Assembly (NCBI GenBank): GCA_034433515.1
Contig: DAOUAL010000065.1
Location: 6,688-70,687 of the forward strand
DNA: 64,000 nt
Direction: 5' to 3'
Origin: Anaerolineae bacterium
GTDB lineage: Bacteria > Chloroflexota > Anaerolineae > UBA4142
In this document: one piece after another, positions 34,336 through 55,194 of the stretch
Numbering within the stretch: the first letter of the stretch is position 1
How the letters are laid out: every line of letters starts with the position of its first letter
Program-made: the position numbers and the translations under genes
Notes under the pieces: model-generated
Database searches by the model: none
What the model was told of the DNA's origin: nothing
The model's input: only the letters and a program-made list of their open reading frames with translations

Positions 34336-34974
34336 TTACAATGGTTCGCCGGGATGAATCGAACCGGCTAACCACGCTTTACCTTCGGCGTACAATTTTT
34401 CGATGGCGGGTCCGCGCAAGCCGGGCAGATGTTCTTTCACTATGAATCCATTCTTCACTTGCACGTACGCCAGATGGCGATAACCTTCCGGAAATCGCGC
34501 AAGCAATTCGGCATCGAGTTTCAAGGTTGCCGCTGGGTCAACGGGGTCAAGGCGATCTTTTTCGTAAATGGGCTGACGTCGAATGATACCCCACCGACCG
34601 GCGCGCTTTTCCAAGAAATCGTAAAAGCGTCCCCAGCATACCACATCTACCAGAACGCCGTCAACCGGCGCACGTTGATTGATCGTCATCTTGACTTGGG
34701 AGACGGCACGATTGCCCACCATGTCGCACGTCCAACCGCCAAGGGTATGCAAGATGTTGACGCCCTTGTTGAAACCCTCACGACTTGCTTCGATAAATTT
34801 CTGCGCGGGTCCCTGAAACCATGTTGCCGTCATCCAACCATCCGAATGCCAGACGGTCGCAAAGCGCTCCCAATCGCCGGCGTCGCGCCACAAGACCCAG
34901 TTCTCAATGATCTCGCGGATAGCAAGTTTATCAAAGGTTAGATCGTTCACTCTCCTCCTTCGAGAATGATCCAT
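34336..34974 (-). CDS. SnoaL-like / NTF2-fold protein
   Basis: 212 aa; IENWVLWRDAGDWERFATVWH..DG pattern of SnoaL_4-type proteins; 1-nt gap to downstream gene. Confidence 0.55.
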   Translation of the reverse strand: MDHSRRRRVNDLTFDKLAIREIIENWVLWRDAGDWERFATVWHSDGWMTATWFQGPAQKFIEASREGFNKGVNILHTLGGWTCDMVGNRAVSQVKMTINQRAPVDGVLVDVVCWGRFYDFLEKRAGRWGIIRRQPIYEKDRLDPVDPAATLKLDAELLARFPEGYRHLAYVQVKNGFIVKEHLPGLRGPAIEKLYAEGKAWLAGSIHPGEPL

Positions 34975-35076: not shown

Positions 35077-36654
35077 CTATTTTGGATTCGCACACGTAAA
35101 GTTTGCCGCGTCGTTGATGTCGCCGCTACCCTTGTACGTTTCAACTTGCGGATACGCGCAGAGTGGGCGGGTCAAATCTACCTTACCAGCCGTCGTATGT
35201 GATGCGGGAATAGATTCAGGCGCCTGACCTTTTTCCACCCAGTTCGAGATGGCAGTAAGCAGGTCGGCTGTGCTAGGCGTACCGCCATCTCCACCACCGC
35301 AGTGTCCCATCCCGGGTGACATAAAGAGGCGCACGAAGGTTTGGGCGTTGGCGGCGCCACCTTGCATGGCGACCACGCTCTCATAATAGTTGACGGTGTT
35401 GCGTGGCGCGATGTTCTGATCGTTCCAACCGTGGTACAAGATCAACTTGCCGCCGGCATTCTTGAAACTGCCAATGTCCGGGTCGGTTGAGTTCAGCACG
35501 GCGCGCAATTTGGCATCGGCATCGTACAAAAGTTGGAAGGTCTTGGGATCGGCAAAGTCAAATGTTTTCCAATCCCAGTTCATATCGGCAAAGTAAAAGT
35601 ACTTGAAGTACGCCAGCGGCGGTCCCCCGGCGTTGTAAATGCGATTCGCCCACAGCAACTCACTGCCGACTTCGTAGGGGAACCAAAACTGTTTGCCCGT
35701 CGTTGGGTCTTTGAGTCCGCCGTAGATGGCTTTGACGGTGGCGACTTGGGCTGGTGTTAGACATTCGTTGTTGTCAGCACCGGTGCACTGAATCTTGGCG
35801 GGATCAAAGTTGCATTTGCGCGGGTCTTGGATAATTCCATCCTTGACATTATCCAATTCATCACAAGCGGCGAGTGCCGCTTTATGGAGCGCCGGTAATT
35901 TTTCCGACGGGAGGCGGCTGGCAGCATCGCGATTGTTCAGCCACTGCGCCCATTGTTCGCCGGGCCACATGTGGGTCACATTGTTCGCTGGCGCGCCAGC
36001 CACAACACCATTGTAATCCATCGGATAGCGTTGAACTTCGGACAGGGCTTGCCCACCGCCGCCCGAACAACCGGTAAAGTACGAATACTTGGGTGCTTGA
36101 CCATAGTATGCTTGGATGATCATCTTGGCATTCAGCGTCATCACATGAATGCCGCGCGAGGCAAAGTCCACGAGCAATTCCGGGCGCCCCATCGCCCAAC
36201 TGCCATTGCCGCCGACATGCCCGGTGTCCGTACTGGCTGTGGCATAGTTGAGGCGGAGTGCGGTGTTCATTGCATTGTAGTTGATCGAACCTGCCAAGCC
36301 GCCATTGCCAACCCCGTTGAACTTGCCGTTCCAGTTTGCCGACATCGGCATCCAGACCTCAAACCGGACTTCGGGTTCCACCACACCGGCGACGCGGCAG
36401 AATGCCTGGGTCGGTGTAATCGGCGCGGTCATATAGGGTGGAACAAAAGCTTTACCCGCCTCGCGCGTTTCTGCCAATGTGATCGTCGTCTGCGGCAAAT
36501 CGAGATACTTGAGACTCTCGCACAGACCAGCAACTTGGACATTCGGAGCGGGTTGAATTGGCGTAGCTGACAGTGCCGGTGTTGCCAACAGTCCCGTCAA
36601 AGCAACGAGTGACAAACCGAGTGCGCTGGAAGCGAACCACATCGTACGTTTCAT
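35077..36654 (-). CDS. Tannase/feruloyl esterase family hydrolase, secreted
   Basis: FTGCSGGGGQAL nucleophile motif, PGMGHCGGG; signal peptide MKRTMWFASSALGLSLVALTGLLATPALSA; ATG 36654 after GGAGGAG. Confidence 0.8.
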   Translation of the reverse strand: MKRTMWFASSALGLSLVALTGLLATPALSATPIQPAPNVQVAGLCESLKYLDLPQTTITLAETREAGKAFVPPYMTAPITPTQAFCRVAGVVEPEVRFEVWMPMSANWNGKFNGVGNGGLAGSINYNAMNTALRLNYATASTDTGHVGGNGSWAMGRPELLVDFASRGIHVMTLNAKMIIQAYYGQAPKYSYFTGCSGGGGQALSEVQRYPMDYNGVVAGAPANNVTHMWPGEQWAQWLNNRDAASRLPSEKLPALHKAALAACDELDNVKDGIIQDPRKCNFDPAKIQCTGADNNECLTPAQVATVKAIYGGLKDPTTGKQFWFPYEVGSELLWANRIYNAGGPPLAYFKYFYFADMNWDWKTFDFADPKTFQLLYDADAKLRAVLNSTDPDIGSFKNAGGKLILYHGWNDQNIAPRNTVNYYESVVAMQGGAANAQTFVRLFMSPGMGHCGGGDGGTPSTADLLTAISNWVEKGQAPESIPASHTTAGKVDLTRPLCAYPQVETYKGSGDINDAANFTCANPK

Positions 36655-36794
36655 TTTGATCTCCTCCAGTTTGTTCATCTGAAAACATTTAGCTAAACGA
36701 TGTGTCCTGCCGGGCACGGCACCGAATTGCTTGGCTGTTCACCTCCTTGGACGACTCGCCGATGGATCGCAGTCGTCGCGGCTTTACAAACCCG

Positions 36795-36823
36795 TTGACT
36801 TGCTTGACCGCACGTGCTAAAAT
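36795..36823 (+). promoter_or_regulatory. Sigma70-like promoter for iclR-family gene
   Basis: TTGACT (36795-36800), 17-nt spacer, TAAAAT (36818-36823). Confidence 0.5.
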
Positions 36824-37625
36824 GACATCCAGAAACCAAAGGGAGGCATCTCAATTGCCGCAACCACCTACGCGTGCCGTAGATCGAGCGCTTGAAATTC
36901 TCTTGTGTTTTAATCAAGATGAACCGGAACTGACGCTGACGCAGATTTCCGAGCGGGTTGGTGTGCACAAGAGTACGGTCTATCGTTTGCTGACCACGCT
37001 TGAGAATAAACGTTTCATTCAACGGGTTGAGGCGAACGGTACGTATCGTCTCGGACTGGGTTTGGTCAGACTAGGCGCGCTCGTTCTCAAAAGTAACAAC
37101 ATTCATCGTCAAGCCACGCCGTACATGCATCGTCTCTCCGCCGAGTACCGGGAAACCGTTGATTTGGCGATCTTGGACGGCGCCGAAGTGGTTTATCTCC
37201 AGGTTGTCGAAAGTCCGCAACGCGTGAAACTGGCAACCGCGCCGGGCGAACGGCTGCCGGCTTTTTGCACGGCGACAGGGAAAGCCTTTCTTGCCTTTTT
37301 GCCGGAAGCGCAAGTTCGAACGATTCTCAAGCGTGGAATGTCCAAGTACACCGAACACACGATCACCTCAATACCCCGGCTCCTCGAAGAGTTGCGTAAA
37401 ACTCGCGAGCGCGGGTTTGCCATCTCGGAACAAGAATTTGAAGCCGGGATCAATGCCGTCGCCGCACCGATCCTCGATGCCAACGCATACCCCTTGGCGG
37501 CGATGGCAATCGTCGGTCCAGCATTTCGATTGCCGTTGGAACGATTGATGCAAGTGGGCAAAACTTTGCGCGAAACCACTGATGCGATTGCGCGGGACAT
37601 TGGCCTAGCCCTGCAATTTTCATAG
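36822..37625 (+). CDS. IclR-family transcriptional regulator
   Basis: AVDRALEILLCF...LTLTQISERVGVHKSTVYRLL wHTH + C-terminal IclR effector domain. In-frame TTG 36855 (8 nt after GGGAGG) is a likely true start, because ATG 36822 overlaps the -10 box. Confidence 0.85.
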   Translation: MTSRNQREASQLPQPPTRAVDRALEILLCFNQDEPELTLTQISERVGVHKSTVYRLLTTLENKRFIQRVEANGTYRLGLGLVRLGALVLKSNNIHRQATPYMHRLSAEYRETVDLAILDGAEVVYLQVVESPQRVKLATAPGERLPAFCTATGKAFLAFLPEAQVRTILKRGMSKYTEHTITSIPRLLEELRKTRERGFAISEQEFEAGINAVAAPILDANAYPLAAMAIVGPAFRLPLERLMQVGKTLRETTDAIARDIGLALQFS

Positions 37626-37643
37626 ATCGTTCATTGACCAACT

Positions 37644-37678
37644 AAAAAAGCCAACAGGTAGCCACCTGTTGGCTTTTT
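37644..37678. terminator. Bidirectional rho-independent terminator
   Basis: AAAAAA-GCCAACAGG-TAGCCA-CCTGTTGGC-TTTTT between convergent iclR and yezD-like genes. Confidence 0.85.
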
Positions 37679-37721
37679 CAGCCAGAGAGGAGGGTTGAAA
37701 TTGGTCAGGATTAAAGAATCG

Positions 37722-37919
37722 CTATTTGTCTTCCTGGTTCTTGAGCGTGATAGGCGAAATTTGTGAACGCGTTGAAAGTCGGAGAGTCTCGGTGGTGGTG
37801 ATTTCAACGATATGACCCTGATGCACTCGAAAAATAATCTCGCCATGATCCAATCCATTGAGCGTCGTGCGGTTGATCTGCACGAGGCGGATGATTTCAT
37901 CGGCAAGCGTCTGACTCAT
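37722..37919 (-). CDS. YezD/DUF2292-like small protein
   Basis: 65 aa; ..GLDHGEIIFRVHQGHIVEITTTETLRL resembles the YezD family core. Confidence 0.5.
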   Translation of the reverse strand: MSQTLADEIIRLVQINRTTLNGLDHGEIIFRVHQGHIVEITTTETLRLSTRSQISPITLKNQEDK

Positions 37920-37949
37920 CGCATCCTCCCTAACTGGCTCCGTACGCTT

Positions 37950-39038
37950 TCAAACGACAACTTGAGCAGGATTTAATGCTTTGTACTTGCCCTTGTTGGC
38001 AGTGATTTCAAACGCCTCCGGTAATTTGTCGAGTCCTTGCAACACGTGCGTGATCGTTGGCTTGAGCGTAACCTGCCCAGTCGCAACAAGATGCACGGTG
38101 TACTCCATCAACTGGCGATTCGTCGGCGCGGGGAACAAGTACTTGATCGCTTGTGCGCGCAGTTGATTTAAATCCAAATCCACCGCACCATCGAACATTG
38201 CCACTTGGACCACTTTGCCCACATCGCGTACGACTTTGAACGCTTGCTTGAGCGTTGCCGCGCCGGCGAGTCCTTGTTTCGTGCTTCCCCCCGCCGCTTC
38301 AAACACGACATCCGCGCCTTTACCCCGGGTCAATTCCAGAATGCGCTTGACCGGGTCATCGGTGCGTGCGTTGATCGTTACATCCGCGCCAAACTTTTTT
38401 GAAAGTTCCAAAATGTCATCGCGGACATCAACGGTGATTGCCATCCCAGCACCCGACGCTTTGGCAATTTGCAAAACGGCGAGTCCCATCGTGCCTTGAC
38501 CAAAGATGACGATGGTGTCGCCCATTTGGAGTTCAGCGGTGTGTACAGCATCGGTTGAGCCGGTGAGCGCTTGGATGCACGCGCCTTCATTGTCCGATAC
38601 GTTCGCCGGCAGTTTGACAAAAATTTCCGCCGGTGCGCTGACGTACTCGGCAAAACAGCCCGGGATCTGCCGACCAACGGCGGGACCTTTGCGGCAATAA
38701 TCCGATTGCCCCGATAAACACAACGCGCATTGGTAGCACGGCATCCGCGAACGTCCACTTGCCACGCGATCACCCACTTGAAGACTTGTTACGCCTTCGC
38801 CCACTTGGACAACCACGCCGGCAAATTCGTGTCCCAGCAATTGGACCGGCGCGTGTTGGGCAATTGCCTCGCGCACGTAATCGGCACCAAGCGTTTCTTC
38901 GCCACGCGCACGAATGACTTCGGTTACACTCGGTTGTGTTACGGTTACCTTGACAACAACTCCGCCCGGTTGCACTTGAGGGTCGGGTACCTCGTCCAAA
39001 CGCATGTCATTGATTGCATAGAATCGCCACGCTTTCAT
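37950..39038 (-). CDS. Zinc-dependent alcohol dehydrogenase (MDR family)
   Basis: GHEFAG catalytic Zn motif, CYQCALCLSGQSDYC structural Zn motif, GQGTMG NAD motif; ATG 39038 after AGGAG. Confidence 0.8.
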   Translation of the reverse strand: MKAWRFYAINDMRLDEVPDPQVQPGGVVVKVTVTQPSVTEVIRARGEETLGADYVREAIAQHAPVQLLGHEFAGVVVQVGEGVTSLQVGDRVASGRSRMPCYQCALCLSGQSDYCRKGPAVGRQIPGCFAEYVSAPAEIFVKLPANVSDNEGACIQALTGSTDAVHTAELQMGDTIVIFGQGTMGLAVLQIAKASGAGMAITVDVRDDILELSKKFGADVTINARTDDPVKRILELTRGKGADVVFEAAGGSTKQGLAGAATLKQAFKVVRDVGKVVQVAMFDGAVDLDLNQLRAQAIKYLFPAPTNRQLMEYTVHLVATGQVTLKPTITHVLQGLDKLPEAFEITANKGKYKALNPAQVVV

Positions 39039-39109
39039 TTCGTTGATTGCTCCTATCTTAATTTGGTCTTGCGCACAAAATTTTATCTCTGTGCTCTCTG
39101 TGGCGCACA

Positions 39110-39481
39110 CTAGTTCTTCGCCGGAATGTTGTGTTCGGTCAACGCAATGCCTTCGCGCATTTCTTTGATGTCAACCGACAATGACAAATAGCCGTCCTTG
39201 AACCGATGACCGAAAAATTCTTTGAGCACCGCCATCACACGGCGCGCCGCGTCTTGCTGTACTTCTACCGGGCGTCCTTCGCGAATCAACAAACCGACGT
39301 GAACGAACGCATACGCCGGATCGCCGTCCGCAATTCGATAATCGGTGAGACGTACCGCGCGACTTTTGATGCCTTTCAAGTTCACCGCGCCGGTTGCCAC
39401 GAGTTCATCGTGCAAACGTGCTAGAACCGGTTGCACGTCAAAGTTGAGATTGTCAGTATATTCGAGCGTGAGATGTGGCAT
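39110..39481 (-). CDS. 5-carboxymethyl-2-hydroxymuconate isomerase (CHMI) family tautomerase/isomerase
   Basis: MPHLTLEYTDNL.. N-terminal Pro start and length (~123 aa) typical of CHMI; RBS GAGGAAG. Confidence 0.75.
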   Translation of the reverse strand: MPHLTLEYTDNLNFDVQPVLARLHDELVATGAVNLKGIKSRAVRLTDYRIADGDPAYAFVHVGLLIREGRPVEVQQDAARRVMAVLKEFFGHRFKDGYLSLSVDIKEMREGIALTEHNIPAKN

Positions 39482-39512
39482 ACTCTTCTTCCTCACTGAT
39501 GTTAGCAGTTTC

Positions 39513-39584
39513 ACCGCCGAGTACGCCGAGTTCGCCGAGAAAATTATTTTTTAAAAACCCCGCGTTCTCTGCGCGCTCGGCGGT
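39513..39584. repeat. 9-mer tandem array (CGCCGAGnn x3) with distal inverted copy
   Basis: CGCCGAG at 39515, 39524, 39533; ACCGCCGAG (39513-39521) complementary to CTCGGCGGT (39576-39584). Confidence 0.75.
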
Positions 39585-39587
39585 AAA

Positions 39588-40547
39588 TCATTCCTCAATC
39601 GGCGGTGTGCCGCGTTTGTGGAATGCTTCAATCGTTTTCAAGCCCCACGCCTGTCCCTTTTTGCGTTCGGCTTCGCTCCACACAATCGGTTTCCAATCGG
39701 GCGCAAGAATCAAACGCGCACCCGCCGTTGCAATTTCAAAACGATTGCCGCCCGGCTCGTACACGTACAGAAAGAACGTTTGCTGAATCGCGTGCTTATG
39801 CGGACCACTTTCGATGAACACGCCGTGCTCAAGACAAATATCCGCCGCACGCAAAATATCCTCGCGATTGTCCACCGCGTATGTAATGTGATGCAAGCGT
39901 CCGTGTGCGCCGTAATAGTCTTCCGAAATCGCCACCTCGTACGATTTGTTGCACACCGTGACCCACGCCGCCTTTTCCGAACCATCGTCAAAAATGATTT
40001 GTTCGGTCAGGCGACAGCCCAACACATCTTGCATAAATTGCCGATTGGCGCGCACATCGGCGGCGAGCAAGTTAATGTGATCAATCCGACGCAAACCGAC
40101 GCCGTGGTGCGGAAATCGCGACGCTTGATTCTTGAGCGCGGGACGCCGTTCGGGTGTCGGCGTATACCATTCAGTCTCGTAATAAATTTCGATGTTGTGT
40201 CCGTCCGGATCGGTGAATTGGTACGTTGCGCCATGTCCCAGATCACCATCGCTCCAGCCCTTGCCCAAGCCGGATTTTTCGATTGCCGCTACACGGCGTT
40301 GCAATGCTTGTGGACTCGACGCGCGAAACGCATAATGGCCCAAGCCGGGTTTCGCGGAGGCGGTCAATTTCAAACTGTGATGTTCGTAATCATCCCAGCC
40401 GCGCAGATACACTGAATCCCCTTGCCGCGCGGTCTCGTACATTCCCATCACATCCACGAAAAAGTGGCGGCTCTCTTCTAACTTGGGCGTTAGCAATTCG
40501 ACGTGCGCCAGATGCGCTAAATCGTAAATCGGTTCTGGTGGTTCCAT
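39588..40547 (-). CDS. Type I extradiol ring-cleavage dioxygenase (VOC superfamily; catechol/homoprotocatechuate 2,3-dioxygenase-like)
   Basis: Two VOC modules; LAHVELLTP..S..FF..V.G, HHSL.L, HINL, HHITY, metal-ligand pattern of catechol 2,3-dioxygenases. Confidence 0.8.
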   Translation of the reverse strand: MEPPEPIYDLAHLAHVELLTPKLEESRHFFVDVMGMYETARQGDSVYLRGWDDYEHHSLKLTASAKPGLGHYAFRASSPQALQRRVAAIEKSGLGKGWSDGDLGHGATYQFTDPDGHNIEIYYETEWYTPTPERRPALKNQASRFPHHGVGLRRIDHINLLAADVRANRQFMQDVLGCRLTEQIIFDDGSEKAAWVTVCNKSYEVAISEDYYGAHGRLHHITYAVDNREDILRAADICLEHGVFIESGPHKHAIQQTFFLYVYEPGGNRFEIATAGARLILAPDWKPIVWSEAERKKGQAWGLKTIEAFHKRGTPPIEE

Positions 40548-40548
40548 A

Positions 40549-41181
40549 TTACTGCTTCCGATTTCGTTCCACGTACTCGCGCAAGCCGTGAAGATCGTAC
40601 GAGGTTTGACCGGCGACAAGTTTCTCGCGCAAGCGTGCCTCGCGTTCAAAACGATCCTGAGATGCTTTAAGCACCTGTGCTATCCGTTCGCGCTTGACGC
40701 ACACGGCGCCATCCGTATCTAGGATGACAATATCGTTCGGCGCGATGGTGGTACCCCCCACTGTAACTGGCACATTCAGTTCGCCGATTTTCGTTTTACT
40801 CGCGCCCTTGACGCGGATAAAGCGCGTCCAAATCGGCAGGCCCAGTTTCACGAGTTCTTCGACATCGCGCACCGCCGCATCCACCAGAATCGCCGCCGCA
40901 CCGTGCACCTTAACTTGCGTTGCCAACAATTCACCAACCAGTGCGACCGGGGCTGGTTCCGGCATTGTCAGTACCAACACATCGCCGGGTTGAATGTGTT
41001 CAATGACCGCGTGCACCATCAAATTATCATCTTGACCACACAGCACGGTGCGCGCAGGCCCCGCCGTGCGACTGCCGGGGATGATTTGAATCAGTGGCAC
41101 ATCAATTAAACCTTCGCGCCCGGCCGCTTCGTAAACCGTGGCGACCCCCAGTTCGCTCAAGCGTTTCATTTCATCGCTCAT
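40549..41181 (-). CDS. RraA-family protein, probable HMG/CHA-type pyruvate aldolase
   Basis: ATVYEA..R.G......I.P......GPA.TV, GD.LV......A..GEL......GAA...VD...RD motif order of RraA/LigK/GalC family; ATGA coupling. Confidence 0.75.
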   Translation of the reverse strand: MSDEMKRLSELGVATVYEAAGREGLIDVPLIQIIPGSRTAGPARTVLCGQDDNLMVHAVIEHIQPGDVLVLTMPEPAPVALVGELLATQVKVHGAAAILVDAAVRDVEELVKLGLPIWTRFIRVKGASKTKIGELNVPVTVGGTTIAPNDIVILDTDGAVCVKRERIAQVLKASQDRFEREARLREKLVAGQTSYDLHGLREYVERNRKQ

Positions 41182-41894
41182 AAACTTTTCACCACCCACG
41201 GCAGCGTGCGTTGCAATGCTTCGGCATATTTGATTTCTTCCCTTCCGGAAATTCGGCGGGCGTGATTGCCACGCCGTGCGGCGAGTTCGGTATAGTACGT
41301 TTGCAAATAACTTTGCGCTTGCATTGCTTGCATCGCCTTGATTTTCTTGTCCATCACCGGCGTGATGTCAACAAAAGTATTCGGTACAAATTCGCACAAC
41401 TCCGGTTGATGTGGCTCGAACAGATACAAGTCTGGGGGAACGATTCGCTTGAACGCGCTTGCTACACCCGCACCCGATGCGAGCAAGCGCGCTTTGTGCA
41501 CGGCTTGATAGGCAACCGGATGATCGGGGTTGAAGGGATCCACCGGTGTGTGCGTGAGCACAATGTCCGGCTGTAGTTCGCGGAAGAGTTCGATCAACTG
41601 CTCCATCGCCGCATCGGTGAGGGTGAGTGGATAATCGCCCACGTCGAGGGCGCGAAATGTTGCGCCGACGGCTTCGGCAGCGGCGGTGGCTTCCGCGTGA
41701 CGAATGCGCTTGACGTTTTCGATGGTTTGTCCCGGCTCTTTCCACAATTCGCCGGACTCGCCGCGTTCGCCGTACGATAAGGCGACGACGGTGGCGGTGC
41801 CGCCTTGTGACGTAATCACCGCAATCGTTCCCGCCGCGCGCCACACAAAATCGGCGGAATGCGCGCCGACGACGAGGAGATTCTTTTTGCTCAT
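41178..41894 (-). CDS. PIG-L/LmbE-family hydrolase (GalB-like candidate 4-oxalomesaconate hydratase)
   Basis: LLVVGAHSADFVW...ALSYGERGES...THTPVDPFNPDH; ATGA overlaps at both ends. Confidence 0.7.
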   Translation of the reverse strand: MSKKNLLVVGAHSADFVWRAAGTIAVITSQGGTATVVALSYGERGESGELWKEPGQTIENVKRIRHAEATAAAEAVGATFRALDVGDYPLTLTDAAMEQLIELFRELQPDIVLTHTPVDPFNPDHPVAYQAVHKARLLASGAGVASAFKRIVPPDLYLFEPHQPELCEFVPNTFVDITPVMDKKIKAMQAMQAQSYLQTYYTELAARRGNHARRISGREEIKYAEALQRTLPWVVKSL

Positions 41895-43030
41895 TCGGAC
41901 ACCCTTTTGATTTCGTCGTTCACATATTCCATATCGAACCACCATTTGTTCTGCGGATGGGCTTGACCCGGCTTGAGCAGACCAGCGGCTCTAATCGCAA
42001 TAGTTTGAGCCAGCCGCGAATGCATCACCGCGTGGCGTACCAAATTATGAGGCAGGGTGGTGGGATTGCTCCACGGACAACTCTTGACGCACCGATTACA
42101 CATCGTTCCTTTTTTATTGGTGAAATTGAAACTGGCACAGCGTCGTACATCCAACTTCCATGTTTCGTAACCGTTGTACATCACTTTATCGCCGGACGAG
42201 ATCGCATGGCTGGGACAATTCTCTGCACAAATTTTGCATTTCTGACAAAAACTCTGCAAGCCGAAATCAATCGGTTTGTCCGGCACCAGCGGCATATTCG
42301 TCAAGATGGCGGCGGCTTTGAACGCGAGACCCCAAAATGGATTCAGAATAATTCCAACGCGGCTTACTTCACCGATGCCTGCCGCAAGCAACAAGGGTGG
42401 GAATAATACGGAATAACGATTGACGAACGAAGGTCCGTACTGCGCTGATGCATCCCAGCCTAACCGTCGAATATAATTTGCCATCGTTTCGACAACCATG
42501 CCAAGGTGTTGGTACGCTTGGAAACTAATCGGATCACCGACCCAATCCGATCCTTGCGAAGCGTGCATCGTGTTCCAATCTTTGCGCATGACGATGATGA
42601 TGGCATTCTCGTACTGGGGTTCAATCGGATTACCTTGTTTGTCGTGGCTCTAGTAGGCGGACAGCGGTACTTGGCAGGTGCCAACGATGTCGGCTTTCAA
42701 GAAATAGCCGGTCGCTTTGATGTGGCGTGTCAGAACTTGTGGGATTGGTGCGTGTTCCGGTGCGCCCGGCTTGGCTGGCATCAAGGCGATGTGATCAATA
42801 ACATCTTTTTGTGCCGCCGAGAGTGGATATTTGCCGGGCAAGATTTTCTGCACACCTTTTTGAACGACAGGCCCATATTCACCGCGTGCGGCCAGACCAT
42901 ACGCCGTGTTGCGCAGATCAATGCGTTGGACATTATCGGTGATAAGGTTGGTGGGCTTGTCCACGCGCTTGAGGCGATCCATTGGAAAAGGTCCCAATTG
43001 TTCTTGACTGTGCAAAATATCTGATTTCAT
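41891..43030 (-). pseudogene. Reductive dehalogenase (RdhA)-like gene, cytoplasmic type, interrupted by one in-frame TAG at 42650-42652
   Basis: ORFs 42650-43030 and 41891-42589 share a frame (1140 nt). FCQKCKICAENCPSHAI and CNRCVKSCPWSNP are RdhA-type FeS motifs. No twin-arginine signal. Confidence 0.65.
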
Positions 43031-43118: not shown

Positions 43119-44483
43119 TTAGCGTTTGTCAAACGCGGGAGCCGGGTAAGCCAGTTTGGCAGTGGCGTGTTCCAGAGGCCAAACGATTTCGAGTTTGCCC
43201 TTCTGCCATTGCACCATCGGGTTCAGCACTTTGCCTGTGCCATCCGCGTTGAAGGTGACTGGCCCGATCACTGTCGTCATATTGGTAGCGGCAATGGCAT
43301 CACGAATTTTATCGCGATCCAATGTGCCGGCTTTTTCGATCGCGGCGGCGAGAATTTGGACGCAGGCATACGCAGGACCGGTCAACAAATCGGCGGGGCG
43401 CTTGAATTCTGCTTGGTACGCCGCGTTGAGTTTATCCACCCCCGGGAATTTCATTGCATTGTGCCAACCCGGGAAGATCGCCACATAGTCACCGTTCTTG
43501 CCGAGGTTGGTGCTCCACGTCACATTTTCCGGTGCGCGGATGATCAAACTAAACTTGGGCGTCCAAGCATTTTCGACCATTTGCTTGAACAGAGCTTCGC
43601 CGCTGGGTTGATTGGGCAACGCCAGAAGCAGCTCTGCCCCAGCCGACTTGGCTTTGAGAATCATGGCGGTAAAGTCGAGATTGCCAACGGCGTACTGCTC
43701 GTCCACCACCACGGTATATCCGTTCTTGGCGGCATTTTCTTTCCACAACGCTTGTTGCTCAAGCCCCCAATCCGATTTTTCTGCAAAGATCGCAACTTTG
43801 AGTGGTCGTTGACCTTCGGGGATCAGCGCGTTGAGAATTGTGAAGGTATCCGGTCCTTGTTGCACCGATTTGGGGAACGGTGAGAAGACATACTTGTAGC
43901 CCTTTTGGTGAATCGCGTTCAGCGCGAAAGCGATACCGAGGTACGGAACCTTGTTCTTTTCGGCGATGGCGGTTGTCGCGACATGCATATCACTGGCGGC
44001 ACCTCCTAGGTACGCTACCACTTTTTGATCGGAGAACAGGGTCTCTAACTTGCTCACCGCTTTGGTGGGGTCAGATTCATCATCGTACACGGTCAGGCGT
44101 AACGGAATCTTTTTATCGTATTCCTTGACATAGATTCCGCCCGTTGCATTGATGTCATTCACTGCATAGGTGTACCCTGGCTTGACTTGTTGACCCAGAG
44201 AACCAAATTTGCCCGTGAGTGGGATGGACGCGCCGATCTCGATGTAAGCAGGTGCCGGCTTGGGCGTGGGTGCCGCAGTGGGGGGAACCGTTGGGGGCTT
44301 GGTGGCTGGCACCGGCGTGGGCGCAACGCTAGAAGCAGAACTCGAGGCTGGCGGTTGAGTCGGTGCCGCTGTTGGCGGAACTGGCGTGGGGGCTGGCGTT
44401 GGCGTGGCACACGCAGCGATAACGACCACAAGAGCCACGAGGCAAACGATCCGTACGACCCAATTCAAATGACGCTTGTTCAC
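43119..44483 (-). CDS. ABC transporter substrate-binding lipoprotein (LivJ/HAAT-type, family 4 SBP)
   Basis: GTG 44483 is 7 nt after GAGGAGGAAAG; signal + lipobox VIAAC; long P/T/A linker; then Peripla_BP_6-like body (IGASIPLTGKF..). Confidence 0.85.
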   Translation of the reverse strand: MNKRHLNWVVRIVCLVALVVVIAACATPTPAPTPVPPTAAPTQPPASSSASSVAPTPVPATKPPTVPPTAAPTPKPAPAYIEIGASIPLTGKFGSLGQQVKPGYTYAVNDINATGGIYVKEYDKKIPLRLTVYDDESDPTKAVSKLETLFSDQKVVAYLGGAASDMHVATTAIAEKNKVPYLGIAFALNAIHQKGYKYVFSPFPKSVQQGPDTFTILNALIPEGQRPLKVAIFAEKSDWGLEQQALWKENAAKNGYTVVVDEQYAVGNLDFTAMILKAKSAGAELLLALPNQPSGEALFKQMVENAWTPKFSLIIRAPENVTWSTNLGKNGDYVAIFPGWHNAMKFPGVDKLNAAYQAEFKRPADLLTGPAYACVQILAAAIEKAGTLDRDKIRDAIAATNMTTVIGPVTFNADGTGKVLNPMVQWQKGKLEIVWPLEHATAKLAYPAPAFDKR

Positions 44484-44617
44484 AGTTCTTTCCTCCTCTT
44501 CGTTAAGAATGGTAGACTGACATTGTCCACTGGTGTTCGACAAACGAGTGTTTTGTGATCTTCTATCCCCCCTTTCCCTTTTGGATGGCATTGCAGAGAT
44601 GCCATCACGTTCGGGTT

Positions 44618-45562
44618 TCAAGCCAGTTGCACTTGTTTTTTGACTGCGCCCCGGCTCAATCGTTTTTGAATCTTGCTCCAGATGCTCACAAAGCCGCCGG
44701 GCAAGAACAAGACCACGAGAATAAAGAGTGTGCCGAAGATAATCACGTGGAATTCCGCAAAGTTCAGTGCCAAGAGTTCTCGCAGGATGACGAAAAACAC
44801 CGCACCGATGACGGGACCTACAATCGTGCCCACGCCACCGATGTATGCCATCATCATCGAATCAAACGTCCATTCCGGACCAAAGGTCAATTGCGGATAG
44901 TAACCGACGTGATAAAAAGCAAAGGCACCGCCGGTCAGCCCGCCAAAGAACGCGCTAATGCTCAACGCAAGTAGTTTGTGCTTTAACGCGCTGACCCCCA
45001 GCGATTCCGCCGCATCTTCTTCTTCGCGGACGGCCATAATTCCCAGCCCAAGCCAGGAATTCACCAGGACATAGGCGGTTCCAACCGTGAATAGCGCTAC
45101 GCCCAAGAACAAATAGTATCGCGGAACAAGCGAATACACTGCCAAGTCTTGGACGGGGATCGAGGAGATGGTCGAGAAGGTGTTTCCTACTGTGATGTAG
45201 AGAATCTGCGAAAGGGCGAGCGTGCCGATGGCAAAGTACACCCCTCTCAGGCGGAAGGCAGGCACACCGATGATGAGCGCCAATGCGACTGCAACCAAGG
45301 CACCGACCAACATGGTGGGAAGGATATGCCATCCCGCAAACCACAGCATTCGTGTAACGAGCGTTCCCGAGCCAAAAAATGCGGCATGACCCAGGTTCGT
45401 TTGTCCGCTAAAGCCGCCCAAGATGTTCCAACTCGAAGCGATGGACACATACAAAAGGACATAGACGGCGAGGTTGAGTATGCTCTCTGCTGTGATGAAC
45501 ATTGGCACGCTGGCGAGAAGTACAATGAGAAGGATGACTAGAATGGCTTGGATTTTATTCAT
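44618..45562 (-). CDS. HAAT-family ABC permease (LivM-type)
   Basis: 314 aa polytopic; GQTNLGHAAFFG.G motif. Confidence 0.85.
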   Translation of the reverse strand: MNKIQAILVILLIVLLASVPMFITAESILNLAVYVLLYVSIASSWNILGGFSGQTNLGHAAFFGSGTLVTRMLWFAGWHILPTMLVGALVAVALALIIGVPAFRLRGVYFAIGTLALSQILYITVGNTFSTISSIPVQDLAVYSLVPRYYLFLGVALFTVGTAYVLVNSWLGLGIMAVREEEDAAESLGVSALKHKLLALSISAFFGGLTGGAFAFYHVGYYPQLTFGPEWTFDSMMMAYIGGVGTIVGPVIGAVFFVILRELLALNFAEFHVIIFGTLFILVVLFLPGGFVSIWSKIQKRLSRGAVKKQVQLA

Positions 45563-45565
45563 GGG

Positions 45566-46450
45566 TTATCCTTCCTTTGTACCGAACAAACCTTGCGGTC
45601 TAAAAATCAAAACCAGGAGAAACAGAACGAGTCCGATGACCTCCTTGTATGTGAGACTGAGAAAATGACCTGTTGCCGATTCGGTCAAGCCCAGGATGAT
45701 GCCACCCACAAAAGTTCCCGTAATGCTGCCCAAACCGCCCAGCACCATCACGACCAAACTTTTGAGCGTCCAACTCATCCCCATCCCCGGATCAATCGAA
45801 TAGCCCACGCTGACTAGCGTGCCGGCTATCCCCGCCAAAGCGGCGCCCATCACAAACGACAAGAGAGAGACCTGTTGAATGTCAATCCCCATCAACGTGG
45901 CGGCTTCCCAGTTTTCAACGGTGGCACGCAACGCTTTGCCGGTGTAGGTTCGGCGCAAGAACAGTTGCAAGCCAACGATCAGTACGAACGCGATGACCAT
46001 GCTGGCAACCCGGACGAGCGGGAAACGCACCTCCGCCAAAGTGAATACAGCGCCAGAATACGATGCTGTGATGCTCCGCGTGTCTGCCGTCCAAAGCCGA
46101 AGGGCGATATTCTGCAAAATCAGCGATAGCCCAAAGCCGACCAGGAGGGTGTTTTGTATCTTGACTCCTTCGGTGAGTTTGACCATCCGACTAAAGAGCA
46201 ATCTGTAGAAAATCGCTCCGATCACGAACAACGAGACAATCGCCATGGGCAGAGAAACAAAGGGGTCAATTTTCCAAAGTGTAAAGAGCCAGAAACTGAC
46301 ATAGCCCCCTAACATCAAGAATTCGCCGTGGGCAACATTGAGAAATTTGGTAACGCCAAACACCAGGGATAGGCCGACTGCCGCCAAGCCGTACAACGCG
46401 CCCATTAGAATTCCGTAAACCAAGTTTTGAGCGAGACCTTCAAACATCAT
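45566..46450 (-). CDS. HAAT-family ABC permease (LivH-type)
   Basis: 294 aa polytopic; FLNVAHGEFLMLG motif. Confidence 0.85.
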   Translation of the reverse strand: MMFEGLAQNLVYGILMGALYGLAAVGLSLVFGVTKFLNVAHGEFLMLGGYVSFWLFTLWKIDPFVSLPMAIVSLFVIGAIFYRLLFSRMVKLTEGVKIQNTLLVGFGLSLILQNIALRLWTADTRSITASYSGAVFTLAEVRFPLVRVASMVIAFVLIVGLQLFLRRTYTGKALRATVENWEAATLMGIDIQQVSLLSFVMGAALAGIAGTLVSVGYSIDPGMGMSWTLKSLVVMVLGGLGSITGTFVGGIILGLTESATGHFLSLTYKEVIGLVLFLLVLIFRPQGLFGTKEG

Positions 46451-47157
46451 TGGGAATCTCCTAGGTACGCACTGCGGACAGATTCGAAGGACAACAGGTC
46501 ATCGCCAGTCCCTTGCCCAACGATCCGACCGTTCTCGATCACGTACGCCCGGTTCGTTAATTCCAAAGCCGCCCGGACGTTTTGTTCGATCAATAAGACG
46601 GTTACGCCTTGCCGATTGATTTCCTTGATCATCTGAAACATTTGCTCGACCAGAATCGGCGCGAGACCGAACGAAGGTTCATCCAGCATCAAGAGTCTGG
46701 GCTTGGACATTAACGCTCTGCCGATGGCGAGCATTTGGCGTTCGCCGCCGCTCAGTGTGCCCGCGCGTTGATGTTTGCGTTCTTCCAGTCGTGGAAAGAT
46801 GCTGTACACCCACTTGAGGGTTTCGTCTTTCGCCTTCCGAGCTTGTGCAACGAATGCCCCCAATTCCAGATTTTCCAAGACACTCATCGCGGTAAAGATC
46901 TTGCCGCCTTCAAGCACCTGAGAGATGCCCAGTTCTACAATTTTGTGCGCTGGCATTTTGCCCAGATCGTTTCCATCGAAAATAACACTGCCTGCGGCGG
47001 GCTTGAGCAATCCGCTGATGATGCGCAACGTCGTGGTCTTGCCAGCGCCGTTGGGTCCTACCAAGGCAACCAGTTCTCCGTCGTTGACTTGCATCGAAAT
47101 GCCCCATAGCGCTTGGAGGTCTTCGTAATAGGCGTCAATGGCTTCGAGTTTAAGCAT
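46447..47157 (-). CDS. ABC ATP-binding protein (LivF-type)
   Basis: Walker A GPNGAGKTT, signature LSGGERQ, Walker B LLMLDEPS. Confidence 0.9.
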   Translation of the reverse strand: MLKLEAIDAYYEDLQALWGISMQVNDGELVALVGPNGAGKTTTLRIISGLLKPAAGSVIFDGNDLGKMPAHKIVELGISQVLEGGKIFTAMSVLENLELGAFVAQARKAKDETLKWVYSIFPRLEERKHQRAGTLSGGERQMLAIGRALMSKPRLLMLDEPSFGLAPILVEQMFQMIKEINRQGVTVLLIEQNVRAALELTNRAYVIENGRIVGQGTGDDLLSFESVRSAYLGDSQ

Positions 47158-47878
47158 GCGCCCTCCCTAGATAAACATCAATGACTTGGGGGTTATGGAT
47201 GATCTCGTTGGGCGAACCTTCCGCAATCTTCGCGCCCATGTTCAGCACGACGACACGATCCGATAATCCGCAAATCACCTTGACAATGTGTTCTACCATC
47301 AAGATGGTTATCCCAGCATCCCGGATCTGCCGGATCAAGGCACACGCGTCATCGGCTTCTTTGGGATTCAGCCCTGCCATCAACTCATCCAACAAAAGCA
47401 GTTTCGGTTTGGCTGCCAACGCGCGCGCTAATTCCAAACGCTTGCGTTGCATCAGCGTGAGGTCTTTGGCAAGCATTTTGGCTTTATCTGCCAACCCCAC
47501 GCGTTCCAAACTTGCCATGGCTTGTTGGGACGCCGCTTTCAGACTGCGGTTCGCTTCTCTGCCGTACACACTGCCGACCATCACATTTTGCAGCGCGGTG
47601 AAATCGAGGAAGGGTTTGACCAACTGAAATGTCCGCGCAATCCCCTTGGCACACATCTGACTGCGCGGCTTGCCAGTAATGTTTTCTCCGCCATACAGCA
47701 CCGTTCCAGAATCCGGTTTCAGAAAACCGGTCAACAGGTTCAACAGTGTGGTCTTGCCCGATCCATTGGGTCCAATGAGACCAACAATCTCGCCTTCACT
47801 AACATCAAACGTTACGTCGTTGACGGCTTTCAGTCCCCCGAAGGATTTGCTCAACCCTTCGATTTTCAACAAGTGCAT
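47150..47878 (-). CDS. ABC ATP-binding protein (LivG-type)
   Basis: Walker A GPNGSGKTT, Walker B LLLLDE, C-terminal LivG-type tail. Confidence 0.9.
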   Translation of the reverse strand: MHLLKIEGLSKSFGGLKAVNDVTFDVSEGEIVGLIGPNGSGKTTLLNLLTGFLKPDSGTVLYGGENITGKPRSQMCAKGIARTFQLVKPFLDFTALQNVMVGSVYGREANRSLKAASQQAMASLERVGLADKAKMLAKDLTLMQRKRLELARALAAKPKLLLLDELMAGLNPKEADDACALIRQIRDAGITILMVEHIVKVICGLSDRVVVLNMGAKIAEGSPNEIIHNPQVIDVYLGRAHA

Positions 47879-47937
47879 TTTTCCTCCCCATTGAGAAGTT
47901 ACGTTTGGATCTTTTGGCAGAGCCGAACAGGATGTCT

Positions 47938-48186
47938 CTATGATTCTTTGGGTTGCTTTTCTTCACCGGAGGGTGTTGGCTGGGCGGCCCCAGCTTGCGC
48001 TTTAAATTCCGATTCTTCAACGTAGATGATCGCTTGTACCGGGCAGTTGGCTTCGCAGGTTCCGCACTCGACACAAAGTGTTACGTTGATATGGGATTGT
48101 GTTTCACCTTCGGTGATGGCGTTACTCTGGCAACCAGCGACACACGCTCCGCACAAGATACATTCCGCTGTAACTACATATGGCAT
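47938..48186 (-). CDS. 2x[4Fe-4S] ferredoxin
   Basis: CILCGACVAGC and CVECGTCEANCP; 82 aa. Confidence 0.8.
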   Translation of the reverse strand: MPYVVTAECILCGACVAGCQSNAITEGETQSHINVTLCVECGTCEANCPVQAIIYVEESEFKAQAGAAQPTPSGEEKQPKES

Positions 48187-48222
48187 TTGCTTACTCCCAT
48201 CTATTTTTAGCAGGTTGCCATG

Positions 48223-48987
48223 CTATCCCATATAAACGCCCTGCCGATCAATGACCTCGCGGATCAAGCGTAATTGCTCCGCGGTCGGCGGCTCGGTAAA
48301 CGGAATATGCGCCGGCACCTGTGGTGTAAATCCCATTGTCTTCAAAACATCGTCTAACGTATTCCCAGGATGGATCGAAATAATCGTCATTTGTTTTGTC
48401 AAGGGGTCGAAACCGAAAATTGCCTTGTCGGTGATCACACGGCTGGGACCACCGGACAGACCCACGCGTATGCGACTATCTCCGCCCTCCAGATAACCCG
48501 GGCTTGTGATGAACGCGATGGTTTGCCTGAGTTTGCGTGCTTCGTGGCGTATGATAATGACCGTCTTTTTTGCCAACGATGCAATATCGTTCGCGCCACC
48601 ACTTCCAATCATATGCCGGAATTTTCCGCGCGGGTCACCAACCAGGGTCGTGTTCAGGTTTCCGTACTGATCAACTTCCAACCCACCGAGAAAGCCAACA
48701 TCCACGCGACCTTTGTGGAGCACCGTGCCCAGAATGTCCGTGAAACTGCTCAACACTTTGGCGCGATACCACACTCGCGGGTCTGCCAGCCCCACGCCGG
48801 TTTCAATCGGTTCGGCATCAATCACACCCAGTTCGAACAACATGGTCATATGGGGTGCGTGCGTCTGTTTTGCGAGAAATGTTGCCACGACGGGCAAGCC
48901 CAACCCCACGGCGACGATTTGGTGATCCTGCAATTCACGCGCGCCGGCAACTGCCATCAATTCAGAATGTGTATATTCAAGACCCAT
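48223..48987 (-). CDS. CoA-transferase subunit B (glutaconate/3-oxoacid CoA-transferase family)
   Basis: ..MLFELGV.., GSGGANDIA motif; follows subunit A gene. Confidence 0.8.
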   Translation of the reverse strand: MGLEYTHSELMAVAGARELQDHQIVAVGLGLPVVATFLAKQTHAPHMTMLFELGVIDAEPIETGVGLADPRVWYRAKVLSSFTDILGTVLHKGRVDVGFLGGLEVDQYGNLNTTLVGDPRGKFRHMIGSGGANDIASLAKKTVIIIRHEARKLRQTIAFITSPGYLEGGDSRIRVGLSGGPSRVITDKAIFGFDPLTKQMTIISIHPGNTLDDVLKTMGFTPQVPAHIPFTEPPTAEQLRLIREVIDRQGVYMG

Positions 48988-48999
48988 AGGTGACCTCCA

Positions 49000-49899
49000 T
49001 CAATAACCCAGGATCGGATCGGCGCGTAAACCATTCAAGTGCTTCATTCCACCCACCAGTTCAAGATACTCCCAATGATCCTTTGTGCCGTACACATATT
49101 TGTCGAGGTATGCCTTGAGATTTTCCGGCGTGCTAGTGCCTTCGACATACTTGACGATTTCCTCGGTATCATAGTCATAGCAACGATACACCGACGTGGG
49201 ATGCGCCGCGAAAGGCAATTGCACAACATGCGAAACAAGAAAACCCGGAATCGCTACTTGTTCTGGTGTGCGACGGGTCATCTCGACCGAAACCAATTCT
49301 TCGGTAAGGATAATCGTACGCTGGGCGGCTCTGGCTTGTTCCACGTTATCCCAGCGTGGACCCAGGATGATCGCATTGCCTTCCTCATCGGCTTGTTGCA
49401 CCTGGACGATGGCAACATCCGGTATCAACGGCTTGAGCGCGAGCCATTGCTCGCCGGTGAACGGATCGTCAATCATCGCGACGTGCGACGCGTCTTGTTC
49501 TTGCAATCGTTTGAGCAGGTCTGATCCCTTGAGCGAGCGAATTGGAATGAAGGGCAAGCCCAGCGACCCGGCGAGATAACGAAAAGTAATCGAAAGACTG
49601 CTGTATTCTTCCGCGATGAGCGTACCATTTTCAATCGCGCGATTTACACAAGCCAATCGTCCAAAACGATCTAGTGAGCCGCCACCGTAGATGAGACGTT
49701 CCACCGCCCCCGCACCTACCAAGAGATCGCCATCCATCGCGCCAACACAGTGCGAGATCGTCAATCCTTTGATGCCTTGACGAATGACCTCGCGCGCAAA
49801 TGCCATATTGCAGCGCGTGATGGCAAATCCAGACAAGGCAATGTGTGAGCCGGACGGGATTGATGCGACTGCTTCAGCAAGCGTTGTAACTTTGGACAC
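49000..49899 (-). CDS. CoA-transferase subunit A
   Basis: LAEAVASIPSGSHIALSGF.., GctA-like N-terminus. Confidence 0.8.
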   Translation of the reverse strand: MSKVTTLAEAVASIPSGSHIALSGFAITRCNMAFAREVIRQGIKGLTISHCVGAMDGDLLVGAGAVERLIYGGGSLDRFGRLACVNRAIENGTLIAEEYSSLSITFRYLAGSLGLPFIPIRSLKGSDLLKRLQEQDASHVAMIDDPFTGEQWLALKPLIPDVAIVQVQQADEEGNAIILGPRWDNVEQARAAQRTIILTEELVSVEMTRRTPEQVAIPGFLVSHVVQLPFAAHPTSVYRCYDYDTEEIVKYVEGTSTPENLKAYLDKYVYGTKDHWEYLELVGGMKHLNGLRADPILGY

Positions 49900-49908
49900 G
49901 CACGCCTC

Positions 49909-51308: not shown

Positions 51309-51316
51309 GCGATCAC

Positions 51317-53026: not shown

Positions 53027-53195
53027 CAATCCTCCGATATAGAACGACGCGGAACATCCGCCGCGATGAGTCTATCGCGCGGTTCCGCGCCCTTGTTTCA
53101 GATTCTGTGAGTTGACATCCTTGTCATTAAACCACTTTCCGCAATCTTGATTTGTGATTGAACAAGTTGTGAATCAACACTCGCAACGATTGGGT

Positions 53196-55170: not shown

Positions 55171-55194
55171 GGTTTACTCCTTCAAGATTTTGAT

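Follow-up and report, generated by a model that had tools for sequence, protein, structure and literature searches.

A stretch of 64,000 nucleotides from an Anaerolineae bacterium (contig DAOUAL010000065.1 of assembly GCA_034433515.1, positions 6,688 to 70,687; hereafter the window) carries an operon whose core encodes a ring-cleavage dioxygenase, an isomerase, a hydratase and an aldolase. We consider it probable that this segment is the Anaerolineae version of the gallate-type meta-cleavage route. The hydratase and the aldolase belong to families known from gallate degradation, and what is new is most likely that a known pathway here uses other enzyme families for ring opening and isomerisation, namely a type I dioxygenase of the VOC superfamily and a CHMI-family tautomerase. 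We give about even chances to a broader proposition, that the dioxygenase represents a hitherto unrecognised type I class, marked by a tyrosine at position 203, present in at least 594 species genomes and specialised for gallate or 3-O-methylgallate, which in Anaerolineae works with a CHMI-family oxalomesaconate tautomerase. The Tyr203 clade comprises members from Chloroflexota, Acidobacteriota, Alphaproteobacteria and Deinococcota.

The four-gene core and its junctions

The core is made up of the following genes, in the order of their transcription:

41178..41894, minus strand: GalB-type 4-oxalomesaconate (4-carboxy-2-hydroxymuconate) hydratase, PIG-L/LmbE fold, 238 aa (PF02585, PDB 5cgz)
40549..41181, minus strand: GalC/LigK-type 4-carboxy-4-hydroxy-2-oxoadipate (HMG/CHA) aldolase, RraA-like fold, 210 aa (NF006731, PDB 3noj)
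39588..40547, minus strand: type I (VOC) extradiol dioxygenase of the Tyr203 clade, 319 aa, proposed to carry out gallate-type ring cleavage (Glyoxalase, TIGR03211)
39110..39481, minus strand: isomerase of the CHMI family (tautomerase superfamily), 123 aa, proposed to stand in for the PrpF-type enzyme (PF02962)

A gene resembling those for reductive dehalogenases (RDH-like) precedes the core, and a Zn-dependent dehydrogenase gene and a DUF2292-like open reading frame (ORF) follow it. Reading the sequence directly, we found that the RDH-like and PIG-L genes share an ATGA overlap at 41894-41891, that the PIG-L and RraA-like genes share another at 41181-41178, and that a single base separates the RraA-like stop codon from the dioxygenase ATG. 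The start codons lie later than in the mechanical ORF list, at 41894 for the PIG-L gene, 41181 for the RraA-like gene, 40547 for the dioxygenase and 39481 (Met-Pro) for the CHMI-family gene, and the same applies to two genes further downstream, the tannase-family gene (36654) and the IclR gene (about 36856). All of the genes named here are on the minus strand with the sole exception of the IclR gene, which is on the plus strand.

A ring-cleavage dioxygenase with tyrosine in place of the catalytic histidine

Pfam recognises two Glyoxalase (VOC) stretches in the window dioxygenase, corresponding to the two-domain type I fold, and homology to homoprotocatechuate 2,3-dioxygenase (HPCD) is detectable at E 4e-35. 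The metal triad H157, H220 and E271 aligns with His155, His214 and Glu267 of HPCD and is invariant in 84 clade sequences, as are Y261 and H252, which correspond to Tyr257 and His248 of HPCD. Where the second-sphere acid-base histidine would be expected (His200 in HPCD, His199 in XylE), 84/84 clade members instead carry a tyrosine, Tyr203 in the window enzyme, the place of which in the pocket is taken from the sequence alignment. In a search of 1.8 billion cluster representatives the tyrosine did not occur outside the cluster of the query and fragments of it; a sister cluster of 55% identity and, among the matches listed, the intact full-length relatives of 32-46% identity have kept the histidine. 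Furthermore, the carboxylate-binding Arg243 and Arg293 of HPCD align with Ser and Gly. The window dioxygenase is a member of a distinct VOC clade that has Tyr for the catalytic His. We infer that it may act on gallate or 3-O-methylgallate; protocatechuate is an alternative.

The closest solved structure is PDB 9wgj (E 9e-116), a 323-aa protein deposited as 'Catechol 1,2-dioxygenase', which likewise has Tyr at the His200 position and has Ser where the window dioxygenase has His250. Our literature search found neither a paper on this structure nor information on its substrate. Chloroflexota metagenomes contain very many homologues of the window dioxygenase, with identities of 77-96%.

Hydratase and aldolase of the gallate pathway families

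Over residues 4-237 of its 238, the PIG-L protein matches Pseudomonas putida GalB (PDB 5cgz, '4-oxalmesaconate hydratase') with an E value of 8e-64, and the next PDB match, diacetylchitobiose deacetylase, which is also the best deacetylase, reaches only E 4e-7. In the pairwise alignment the AHxxD and DH motifs of the PIG-L fold read AHSAD and DHP in both proteins; we take these motifs to supply Zn ligands, as in MshB-type enzymes. No NCBIfam model recognises the GalB-type hydratase, the best match being BshB1, far below its cutoff.

The RraA-like protein passes the NF006731 equivalog (194.6 bits, cutoff 179) and does not reach the stricter TIGR02798 ligK_PcmE (182 bits, cutoff 304.5). It aligns without gaps to the HMG/CHA aldolase of Pseudomonas putida F1 (PDB 3noj, E 1.7e-43), whereas RraA proper matches it at only about 1e-11 to 1e-5. 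In the F1 aldolase Arg123 is essential and Asp124 and Glu199 are metal ligands (PMC5065237), and these residues correspond in the 3noj alignment to R105, D106 and E181 of the window aldolase. Asn71, His75, Lys147, Arg195 and Arg40 (F1 numbering; residue list from PMC5065237) are also kept. On the strength of these alignments, the PIG-L and RraA-like proteins are genuine homologues of the GalB-type hydratase and the HMG/CHA aldolase.

A CHMI-family isomerase proposed to replace a PrpF-type tautomerase

The fourth core protein belongs to the CHMI family (PF02962, 103.5 bits, cutoff 26.5, E 1e-29; PDB matches 4jcu and 1otg) and scores 73 bits against the HpcD/HpaF equivalog NF011605, the cutoff of which is 215 and is not reached. 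Among 17 Chloroflexota orthologues, 16 start with Met-Pro and the 17th with Val-Pro in the tblastn translation, and the genes begin 2-119 nucleotides past the dioxygenase stop codon. CHMI-family enzymes carry out dienol to 2-oxo-3-ene shifts on carboxylated hydroxymuconates, and it is a shift of this kind that is needed ahead of hydration, as established for LigU and GalD.

The canonical partners of such a pathway are missing from the host. Its assembly comprises 3.68 Mb and is 96% complete, and nowhere in it did we find a match to the LigB domain (PF02900), the PrpF domain (PF04303), a DUF1932 dehydrogenase or a DmpG-type aldolase. The dioxygenase, the GalB-type hydratase and the tannase-family gene each occur once in the genome, and all three copies are in this segment; the hydratase count refers to close copies. 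The genome also encodes one haem-copper oxidase, so O2-dependent chemistry is plausible in this organism.

A first-pass annotation made from the window alone had described the PIG-L and RraA-like genes as GalB-like and GalC/LigK-like and as translationally coupled, had read the two genes after them as a type I VOC extradiol dioxygenase instead of a LigB/GalA-type enzyme and a CHMI-family isomerase instead of a PrpF-type GalD, and had proposed a variant pathway assembled from different enzyme families. Our data bear out the gene descriptions and largely support the interpretation: the full-length match to 5cgz, the match to 3noj with its catalytic residues kept, the ATGA overlap between the hydratase and aldolase genes, the two VOC modules with their metal triad, the PF02962 match with its N-terminal proline, and a genome without PF02900 or PrpF. 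That annotation had further named deacetylases and RNase E regulators as clades in which the first two proteins might fall, and neither protein groups there. The proposal of a variant pathway is also consistent with the gene order in relatives, described below.

Conservation of the core across genomes

A scan for the dioxygenase with one genome per species returned at least 594 loci, of which 80 were kept. Neighbours were counted in 18 loci from Chloroflexota, 17 from Acidobacteriota and 45 from Pseudomonadota, a gene being a neighbour when it lay within 10 kb of the dioxygenase gene:

PIG-L: Chloroflexota 17/18, Acidobacteriota 4/17, Pseudomonadota 22/45
RraA-like: Chloroflexota 17/18, Acidobacteriota 5/17, Pseudomonadota 23/45
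CHMI: Chloroflexota 17/18, Acidobacteriota 0/17, Pseudomonadota 0/45
PrpF: Chloroflexota 0/18, Acidobacteriota 5/17, Pseudomonadota 1/45
LigM: Chloroflexota 0/18, Acidobacteriota 4/17, Pseudomonadota 0/45
BD-FAE esterase: Chloroflexota 8/18, Acidobacteriota 1/17, Pseudomonadota 0/45
Tannase-family gene: Chloroflexota 3/18, Acidobacteriota 0/17, Pseudomonadota 0/45
SnoaL_4: Chloroflexota 7/18, Acidobacteriota 0/17, Pseudomonadota 0/45
RDH-like gene: Chloroflexota 10/18, Acidobacteriota 0/17, Pseudomonadota 0/45
LigI-like Amidohydro_2: Chloroflexota 0/18, Acidobacteriota 3/17, Pseudomonadota 6/45

The order PIG-L, RraA, VOC, CHMI is fixed in 17 of the 18 Chloroflexota loci, and the sole locus without PIG-L and RraA-like matches is on a short contig that ends about 300 bases from the dioxygenase gene. 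CHMI and PrpF genes never occur in one locus. Acidobacteriota loci such as L067 have the order LigM - VOC - PIG-L - RraA - PrpF, in which LigM scores 753 bits against its equivalog NF047885 (cutoff 580) and PrpF 525 bits against the oxalomesaconate (OMA) tautomerase equivalog NF033377 (cutoff 440); the VOC enzyme therefore occupies the slot of GalA/DesB in a cluster that is canonical in all other respects. The absence of LigB and PrpF from the host genome, the VOC-CHMI pair fixed beside GalB/GalC-type genes in 17/18 loci, and the GalA slot of Acidobacteriota together support non-orthologous replacement. The dioxygenase clade is found beside GalB/GalC-type genes in Alphaproteobacteria as well. 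In a quick tree the 18 Chloroflexota dioxygenases formed one supported clade and those of Acidobacteriota and Pseudomonadota were intermixed, and this intermixing suggests lateral spread.

Other layouts were also seen. Several Pseudomonadota loci have a TctC binding protein gene and an unannotated gene of about 315 aa between the RraA-like and VOC genes. The latter is found no more than 10 kb from the dioxygenase in 18 of the 45 loci (for example L057:8903-9850 and L028:8911-9993), lies between the RraA-like and dioxygenase genes in the two loci read, and shows only a weak NMT1/periplasmic-binding-like likeness (E about 1e-3); its product may be a decarboxylase or the isomerase that these loci lack. 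A 117-aa ORF that recurs after the dioxygenase in Alphaproteobacteria was considered as a hidden tautomerase and rejected, as it resembles neither CHMI nor any PDB chain. A third layout, in Deinococcota and candidate phyla, consists of VOC, an internal GntR, DUF6282, PIG-L, RraA and a DUF1932 dehydrogenase (L040:9968-14726, a Meiothermus metagenome-assembled genome; L017; L030), with LigM nearby in L017 and L030. Further DUF1932 dehydrogenase-like genes are, among other places, at L016:8949-9887, L019:8850-9905, L034:10861-11883 and L071:13615-14553, and the best PDB matches of these proteins are the uncharacterised structural-genomics proteins 4ezb and 3qsg.

Genes downstream and upstream of the core

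The genes that surround the core are as follows:

43119..47878, minus strand: LIV-type ABC transporter, with a lipoprotein binding protein, two permeases and two ATPases (Peripla_BP_6, BPD_transp_2 twice, ABC_tran twice)
41891..43030, minus strand: RDH-like cobalamin/FeS gene for a cytoplasmic protein, broken by an in-frame TAG at 42650-42652 (TIGR02486, 158 bits)
37950..39038, minus strand: Zn-dependent medium-chain (MDR) dehydrogenase (ADH_N and ADH_zinc_N)
37722..37919, minus strand: small DUF2292-like ORF, the last gene of the operon (PF10055, E 1.6e-4, just under the cutoff)
36856..37625, plus strand: regulator of the IclR family, transcribed divergently from the esterase gene and convergently with the operon (HTH_IclR and IclR_C)
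35077..36654, minus strand: secreted tannase/feruloyl-esterase-family aryl-ester hydrolase (PF07519)
34336..34974, minus strand: SnoaL_4 (NTF2-like) protein, directly after the esterase gene (PF13577)

The dehydrogenase gene and the DUF2292-like ORF, between the CHMI-family gene and the end of the operon, had not been noted in the first-pass annotation. The dehydrogenase has generic MDR likeness, with archaeal threonine dehydrogenases as its best PDB matches at only E 1e-43. Only one of the 18 Chloroflexota loci, that of the 96%-identical relative L004, has this gene, and it is a lineage-specific addition. A hairpin followed by a T run was read at about 37645-37680, 3' of the DUF2292-like ORF. 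A terminator and promoter scan gave counts inside the operon at chance level, and internal signals are neither supported nor contradicted by it.

The tannase-family protein matches PF07519 with 375.6 bits (E 5e-112) and carries a signal peptide of the Sec type (MKRTMWFASSALGLSLVALTGLLATPALSA). The GCSGGG motif, with the Ser nucleophile, and an HC motif (GMGHC) supply the Cys-Ser / His-Cys pair of the family. None of the NCBIfam tannase models matched it. Its gene starts about 1.07 kb from the operon end at 37722, and a promoter-like TTGACT-17-TAAAAT lies at 36795-36823 for the IclR gene. The IclR protein scores 170 bits for the pcaR_pcaU subfamily, below the cutoff; IclR homologues are found within 10 kb in six related loci, and some relatives have a LysR regulator in their clusters where the window has IclR. 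The earlier description of a secreted tannase or feruloyl esterase with a divergent IclR regulator about 1 kb downstream of the operon is thus upheld by the family models, the signal peptide and the measured gap. Its link to the operon is likewise strengthened, since the clusters of relatives repeatedly contain SnoaL_4 genes and esterases of the tannase or BD-FAE families and the window tannase is the sole copy in the genome.

The SnoaL_4 homologues in relatives are 73-87% identical to that of the window and in several loci, such as L002, come directly after the CHMI-family gene. The BD-FAE/Abhydrolase_3 esterase, of about 303 aa, occurs at L001:7705-8619, L002:7660-8571, L003:7698-8615 and five further loci; in three loci with gene calls that we read it immediately precedes the PIG-L gene, and the window has none there. 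Its activity may be that of a galloyl or methyl esterase, or of a lactonase acting on intermediates of the 2-pyrone-4,6-dicarboxylate (PDC) type.

Upstream, the operon continues through the RDH-like gene and the ABC transporter, to about 18 kb overall. The RDH-like gene has one in-frame amber codon while the four-gene core is intact, and its homologues near the core of other Chloroflexota are intact (365-392 aa) in the three loci with gene calls that we read. The LIV-type transporter is a candidate uptake system, and homologues of its binding protein occur in 12 of 18 related loci. The binding protein itself (43119-44400, minus strand) has a lipoprotein-like signal, then a Pro/Thr/Ala-rich linker of about 60 residues, then the binding domain. 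The same gene train goes on at 47900-55600 on the minus strand with genes for cupin, U32-like, creatininase-like, AOR, ThiS-like and nitroreductase proteins, a 154-aa protein and CoA-transferase A and B. Pieces of this train are found near the core in relatives (AOR in five loci, creatininase-like in two, CoA-transferases in three, nitroreductase in two).

Proposed route

In the route that we propose, the secreted tannase/feruloyl-esterase-family hydrolase, under divergent IclR control, would free an aromatic acid from plant esters, and the acid would be taken up, possibly by the adjacent ABC transporter. The VOC dioxygenase would then cleave a 3,4,5-oxygenated benzoate between C4 and C5, candidate substrates being gallate and perhaps 3-O-methylgallate or another 5-substituted protocatechuate. 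Because C5 would bear oxygen, cleavage would yield a tricarboxylic dienol, 4-carboxy-2-hydroxymuconate (oxalomesaconate), and the route could do without a dehydrogenase. The CHMI-family tautomerase would make the dienol to 2-oxo-3-ene shift that is done elsewhere by PrpF-type GalD/LigU, the GalB-type hydratase would add water to give 4-carboxy-4-hydroxy-2-oxoadipate (abbreviated CHA), and the GalC-type aldolase would split CHA into pyruvate and oxaloacetate.

This proposal follows from the composition of the conserved core, which holds four activities and neither a dehydrogenase nor a lactonase, as a gallate route requires. The lack of a dehydrogenase in most Chloroflexota clusters fits a trihydroxy substrate. 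3-O-methylgallate gives PDC on cleavage, and the LigI-like and LigM genes of other phyla would fit this substrate, so that the clade may take both gallate and its 3-O-methyl ether.

Several observations weigh against this assignment. The dioxygenase scores above the cutoff of the catechol 2,3-dioxygenase equivalog TIGR03211 (349.5 bits, cutoff 320.2), our literature search found no published substrate for any enzyme of the Tyr203 clade, and we know of no test of CHMI-family activity on oxalomesaconate. In the window a dehydrogenase gene stands directly after the CHMI-family gene. In relatives, 27/83 loci have an NAD_binding_2/DUF1932 dehydrogenase-like gene no further than 10 kb from the dioxygenase, directly adjoining it in several, and LigI-like amidohydrolases are near it in nine loci, which would fit protocatechuate 4,5-cleavage too. 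The esterase is nearer to fungal feruloyl esterase B (FaeB, 6g21, 1e-68) and MHETase (6e-59) than to a solved tannase (Aspergillus niger, 1e-26), and the binding protein of the transporter matches only generic Leu/Ile/Val-binding proteins in the PDB, which give no ligand clue.

Alternative explanations

The dehydrogenase-like and LigI-like genes raise the possibility of a protocatechuate pathway, which we consider unlikely. The VOC enzyme would here be a type I protocatechuate 4,5-dioxygenase, the Zn-dehydrogenase or, in other clusters, the DUF1932 protein would act as a LigC analogue and oxidise the semialdehyde product (4-carboxy-2-hydroxymuconate semialdehyde) to PDC, an additional lactonase would convert PDC to oxalomesaconate, and the CHMI-family, GalB-type and GalC-type enzymes would finish the route. 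The position of the dehydrogenase gene in the window and the two gene families in other phyla agree with this, as do the four Amidohydro_2 genes found elsewhere in the host genome, and LigM makes protocatechuate from vanillate as well. However, apart from the window only the 96%-identical relative has the Zn-dehydrogenase, neither a DUF1932-type nor a Zn-dependent dehydrogenase occurs in 13 of the 18 Chloroflexota clusters, none of the 18 has a LigI-like gene, no DUF1932 gene exists in the host genome, and the lactonase or PDC hydrolase that is required is absent from the 18-kb operon. The RDH-like genes, which adjoin the core in 10 of the 18 Chloroflexota loci and in the window are translationally coupled to the hydratase gene, could instead point to a halogenated protocatechuate or hydroxybenzoate. 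The RDH-like enzyme and the dioxygenase would then together dehalogenate the substrate, ring cleavage adjacent to a halogen-bearing carbon would yield an acyl halide that leads on to PDC or oxalomesaconate, and gallate esters would be irrelevant. We regard this as very improbable, as the window RDH-like gene is a nonsense-mutated pseudogene beside an intact core, no such gene is found in the Acidobacteriota or Pseudomonadota loci, and the esterases and LigM point to plant phenolics.

Even less probable is a homoprotocatechuate-type route, with the VOC enzyme as an HPCD, the CHMI-family enzyme acting on 5-carboxymethyl-2-hydroxymuconate as in Escherichia coli, and GalB and GalC replacing HpaH and HpaI. 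Neither an aldehyde dehydrogenase nor an OPET decarboxylase is encoded in the cluster, the CHMI-family protein is far from its equivalog cutoff, the two HPCD arginines are replaced, and the same dioxygenase accompanies OMA tautomerase and LigM in other phyla; these points stand against the detectable HPCD homology and the fact that CHMI is the signature isomerase of that pathway. The least probable reading is that of an ordinary catechol or alkylcatechol 2,3-dioxygenase whose GalB/GalC neighbourhood is coincidental or part of a mixed catabolic island. It would account for the TIGR03211 score and for the label catechol 2,3-dioxygenase that all named homologues carry, but the association with GalB/GalC-type genes holds across three phyla, and the histidine retained by known catechol 2,3-dioxygenases is Tyr in every clade member. 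A classical catechol meta-pathway was rejected for the host genome because it has no DmpG-type aldolase.

Relationship to known systems

The gallate-type route proposed here has the same four chemical steps, without a dehydrogenase, as the pathway of P. putida KT2440 (GalA, GalD, GalB and GalC). The window hydratase is a clear GalB homologue, and the window aldolase is homologous to the F1 HMG/CHA aldolase, the enzyme type that GalC represents. In contrast to KT2440, the window has a two-domain VOC enzyme instead of the LigB-type GalA and a CHMI-family tautomerase instead of the PrpF-type GalD, its regulator is IclR, and it has an attached esterase, ABC transporter and RDH-like gene. With the protocatechuate 4,5-cleavage and syringate pathways of Sphingobium sp. 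SYK-6 (LigAB, DesB, DesZ, LigC, LigI, LigU, LigJ, LigK and LigM) it would share the conversion of oxalomesaconate via CHA to pyruvate and oxaloacetate, and in Acidobacteriota a LigK-type aldolase and a LigM-type demethylase accompany the same dioxygenase clade. However, the window hydratase is of the PIG-L type whereas SYK-6 LigJ is an amidohydrolase, the window lacks LigC and LigI, and the SYK-6 ring-cleavage enzymes are all of the LigB type.

The window dioxygenase shares with HPCD of Brevibacterium fuscum and the catechol 2,3-dioxygenase XylE a VOC fold of two domains, the 2-His-1-carboxylate triad and the Tyr257/His248 equivalents. Its clade differs from these enzymes in the tyrosine at the His200 position, the lack of Arg243/Arg293 and its genomic partners. 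Similarly, the CHMI-family protein shares with the E. coli enzyme (HpcD/HpaF, 1otg) its Pfam family, the N-terminal catalytic proline and the reaction type, dienol to 2-oxo-3-ene, but it is far below the equivalog cutoff and lies in a gallate-type rather than a homoprotocatechuate cluster. To our knowledge, all characterised gallate ring-cleavage enzymes are of the LigB type and all characterised oxalomesaconate isomerases of the PrpF type. A literature search of incomplete coverage turned up no account of a gallate dioxygenase of the VOC type or of an oxalomesaconate tautomerase of the CHMI type, and nothing relevant on tannase or gallate in Anaerolineae; a related structure has been deposited.

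Implications

If the proposed route is correct, one short pathway would have undergone two non-orthologous replacements, that of the ring-cleavage enzyme by a VOC dioxygenase and that of the tautomerase by a CHMI-family protein. A natural His-to-Tyr change at a key second-sphere position bears on O2 activation and on the choice of the cleaved bond in extradiol dioxygenases. The presence of orthologues in cultured Bradyrhizobium (such as Bradyrhizobium sp. LjRoot220) and Microvirga strains makes the prediction directly testable.

Since the catechol 2,3-dioxygenase equivalog accepts the Tyr-clade enzyme and NCBIfam lacks a model for the hydratase, both are systematically mislabelled, and annotation pipelines will call this route a deacetylase plus catechol meta-cleavage. 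Gallate and methylgallate are funnel points for hydrolysable tannins and syringyl lignin and hence matter for carbon turnover. If our reading holds, thousands of metagenomic 'catechol 2,3-dioxygenase' calls would mark the breakdown of tannin or syringyl lignin, and aerobic polyphenol catabolism would extend to the abundant, mostly uncultured Anaerolineae and to soil Acidobacteriota.

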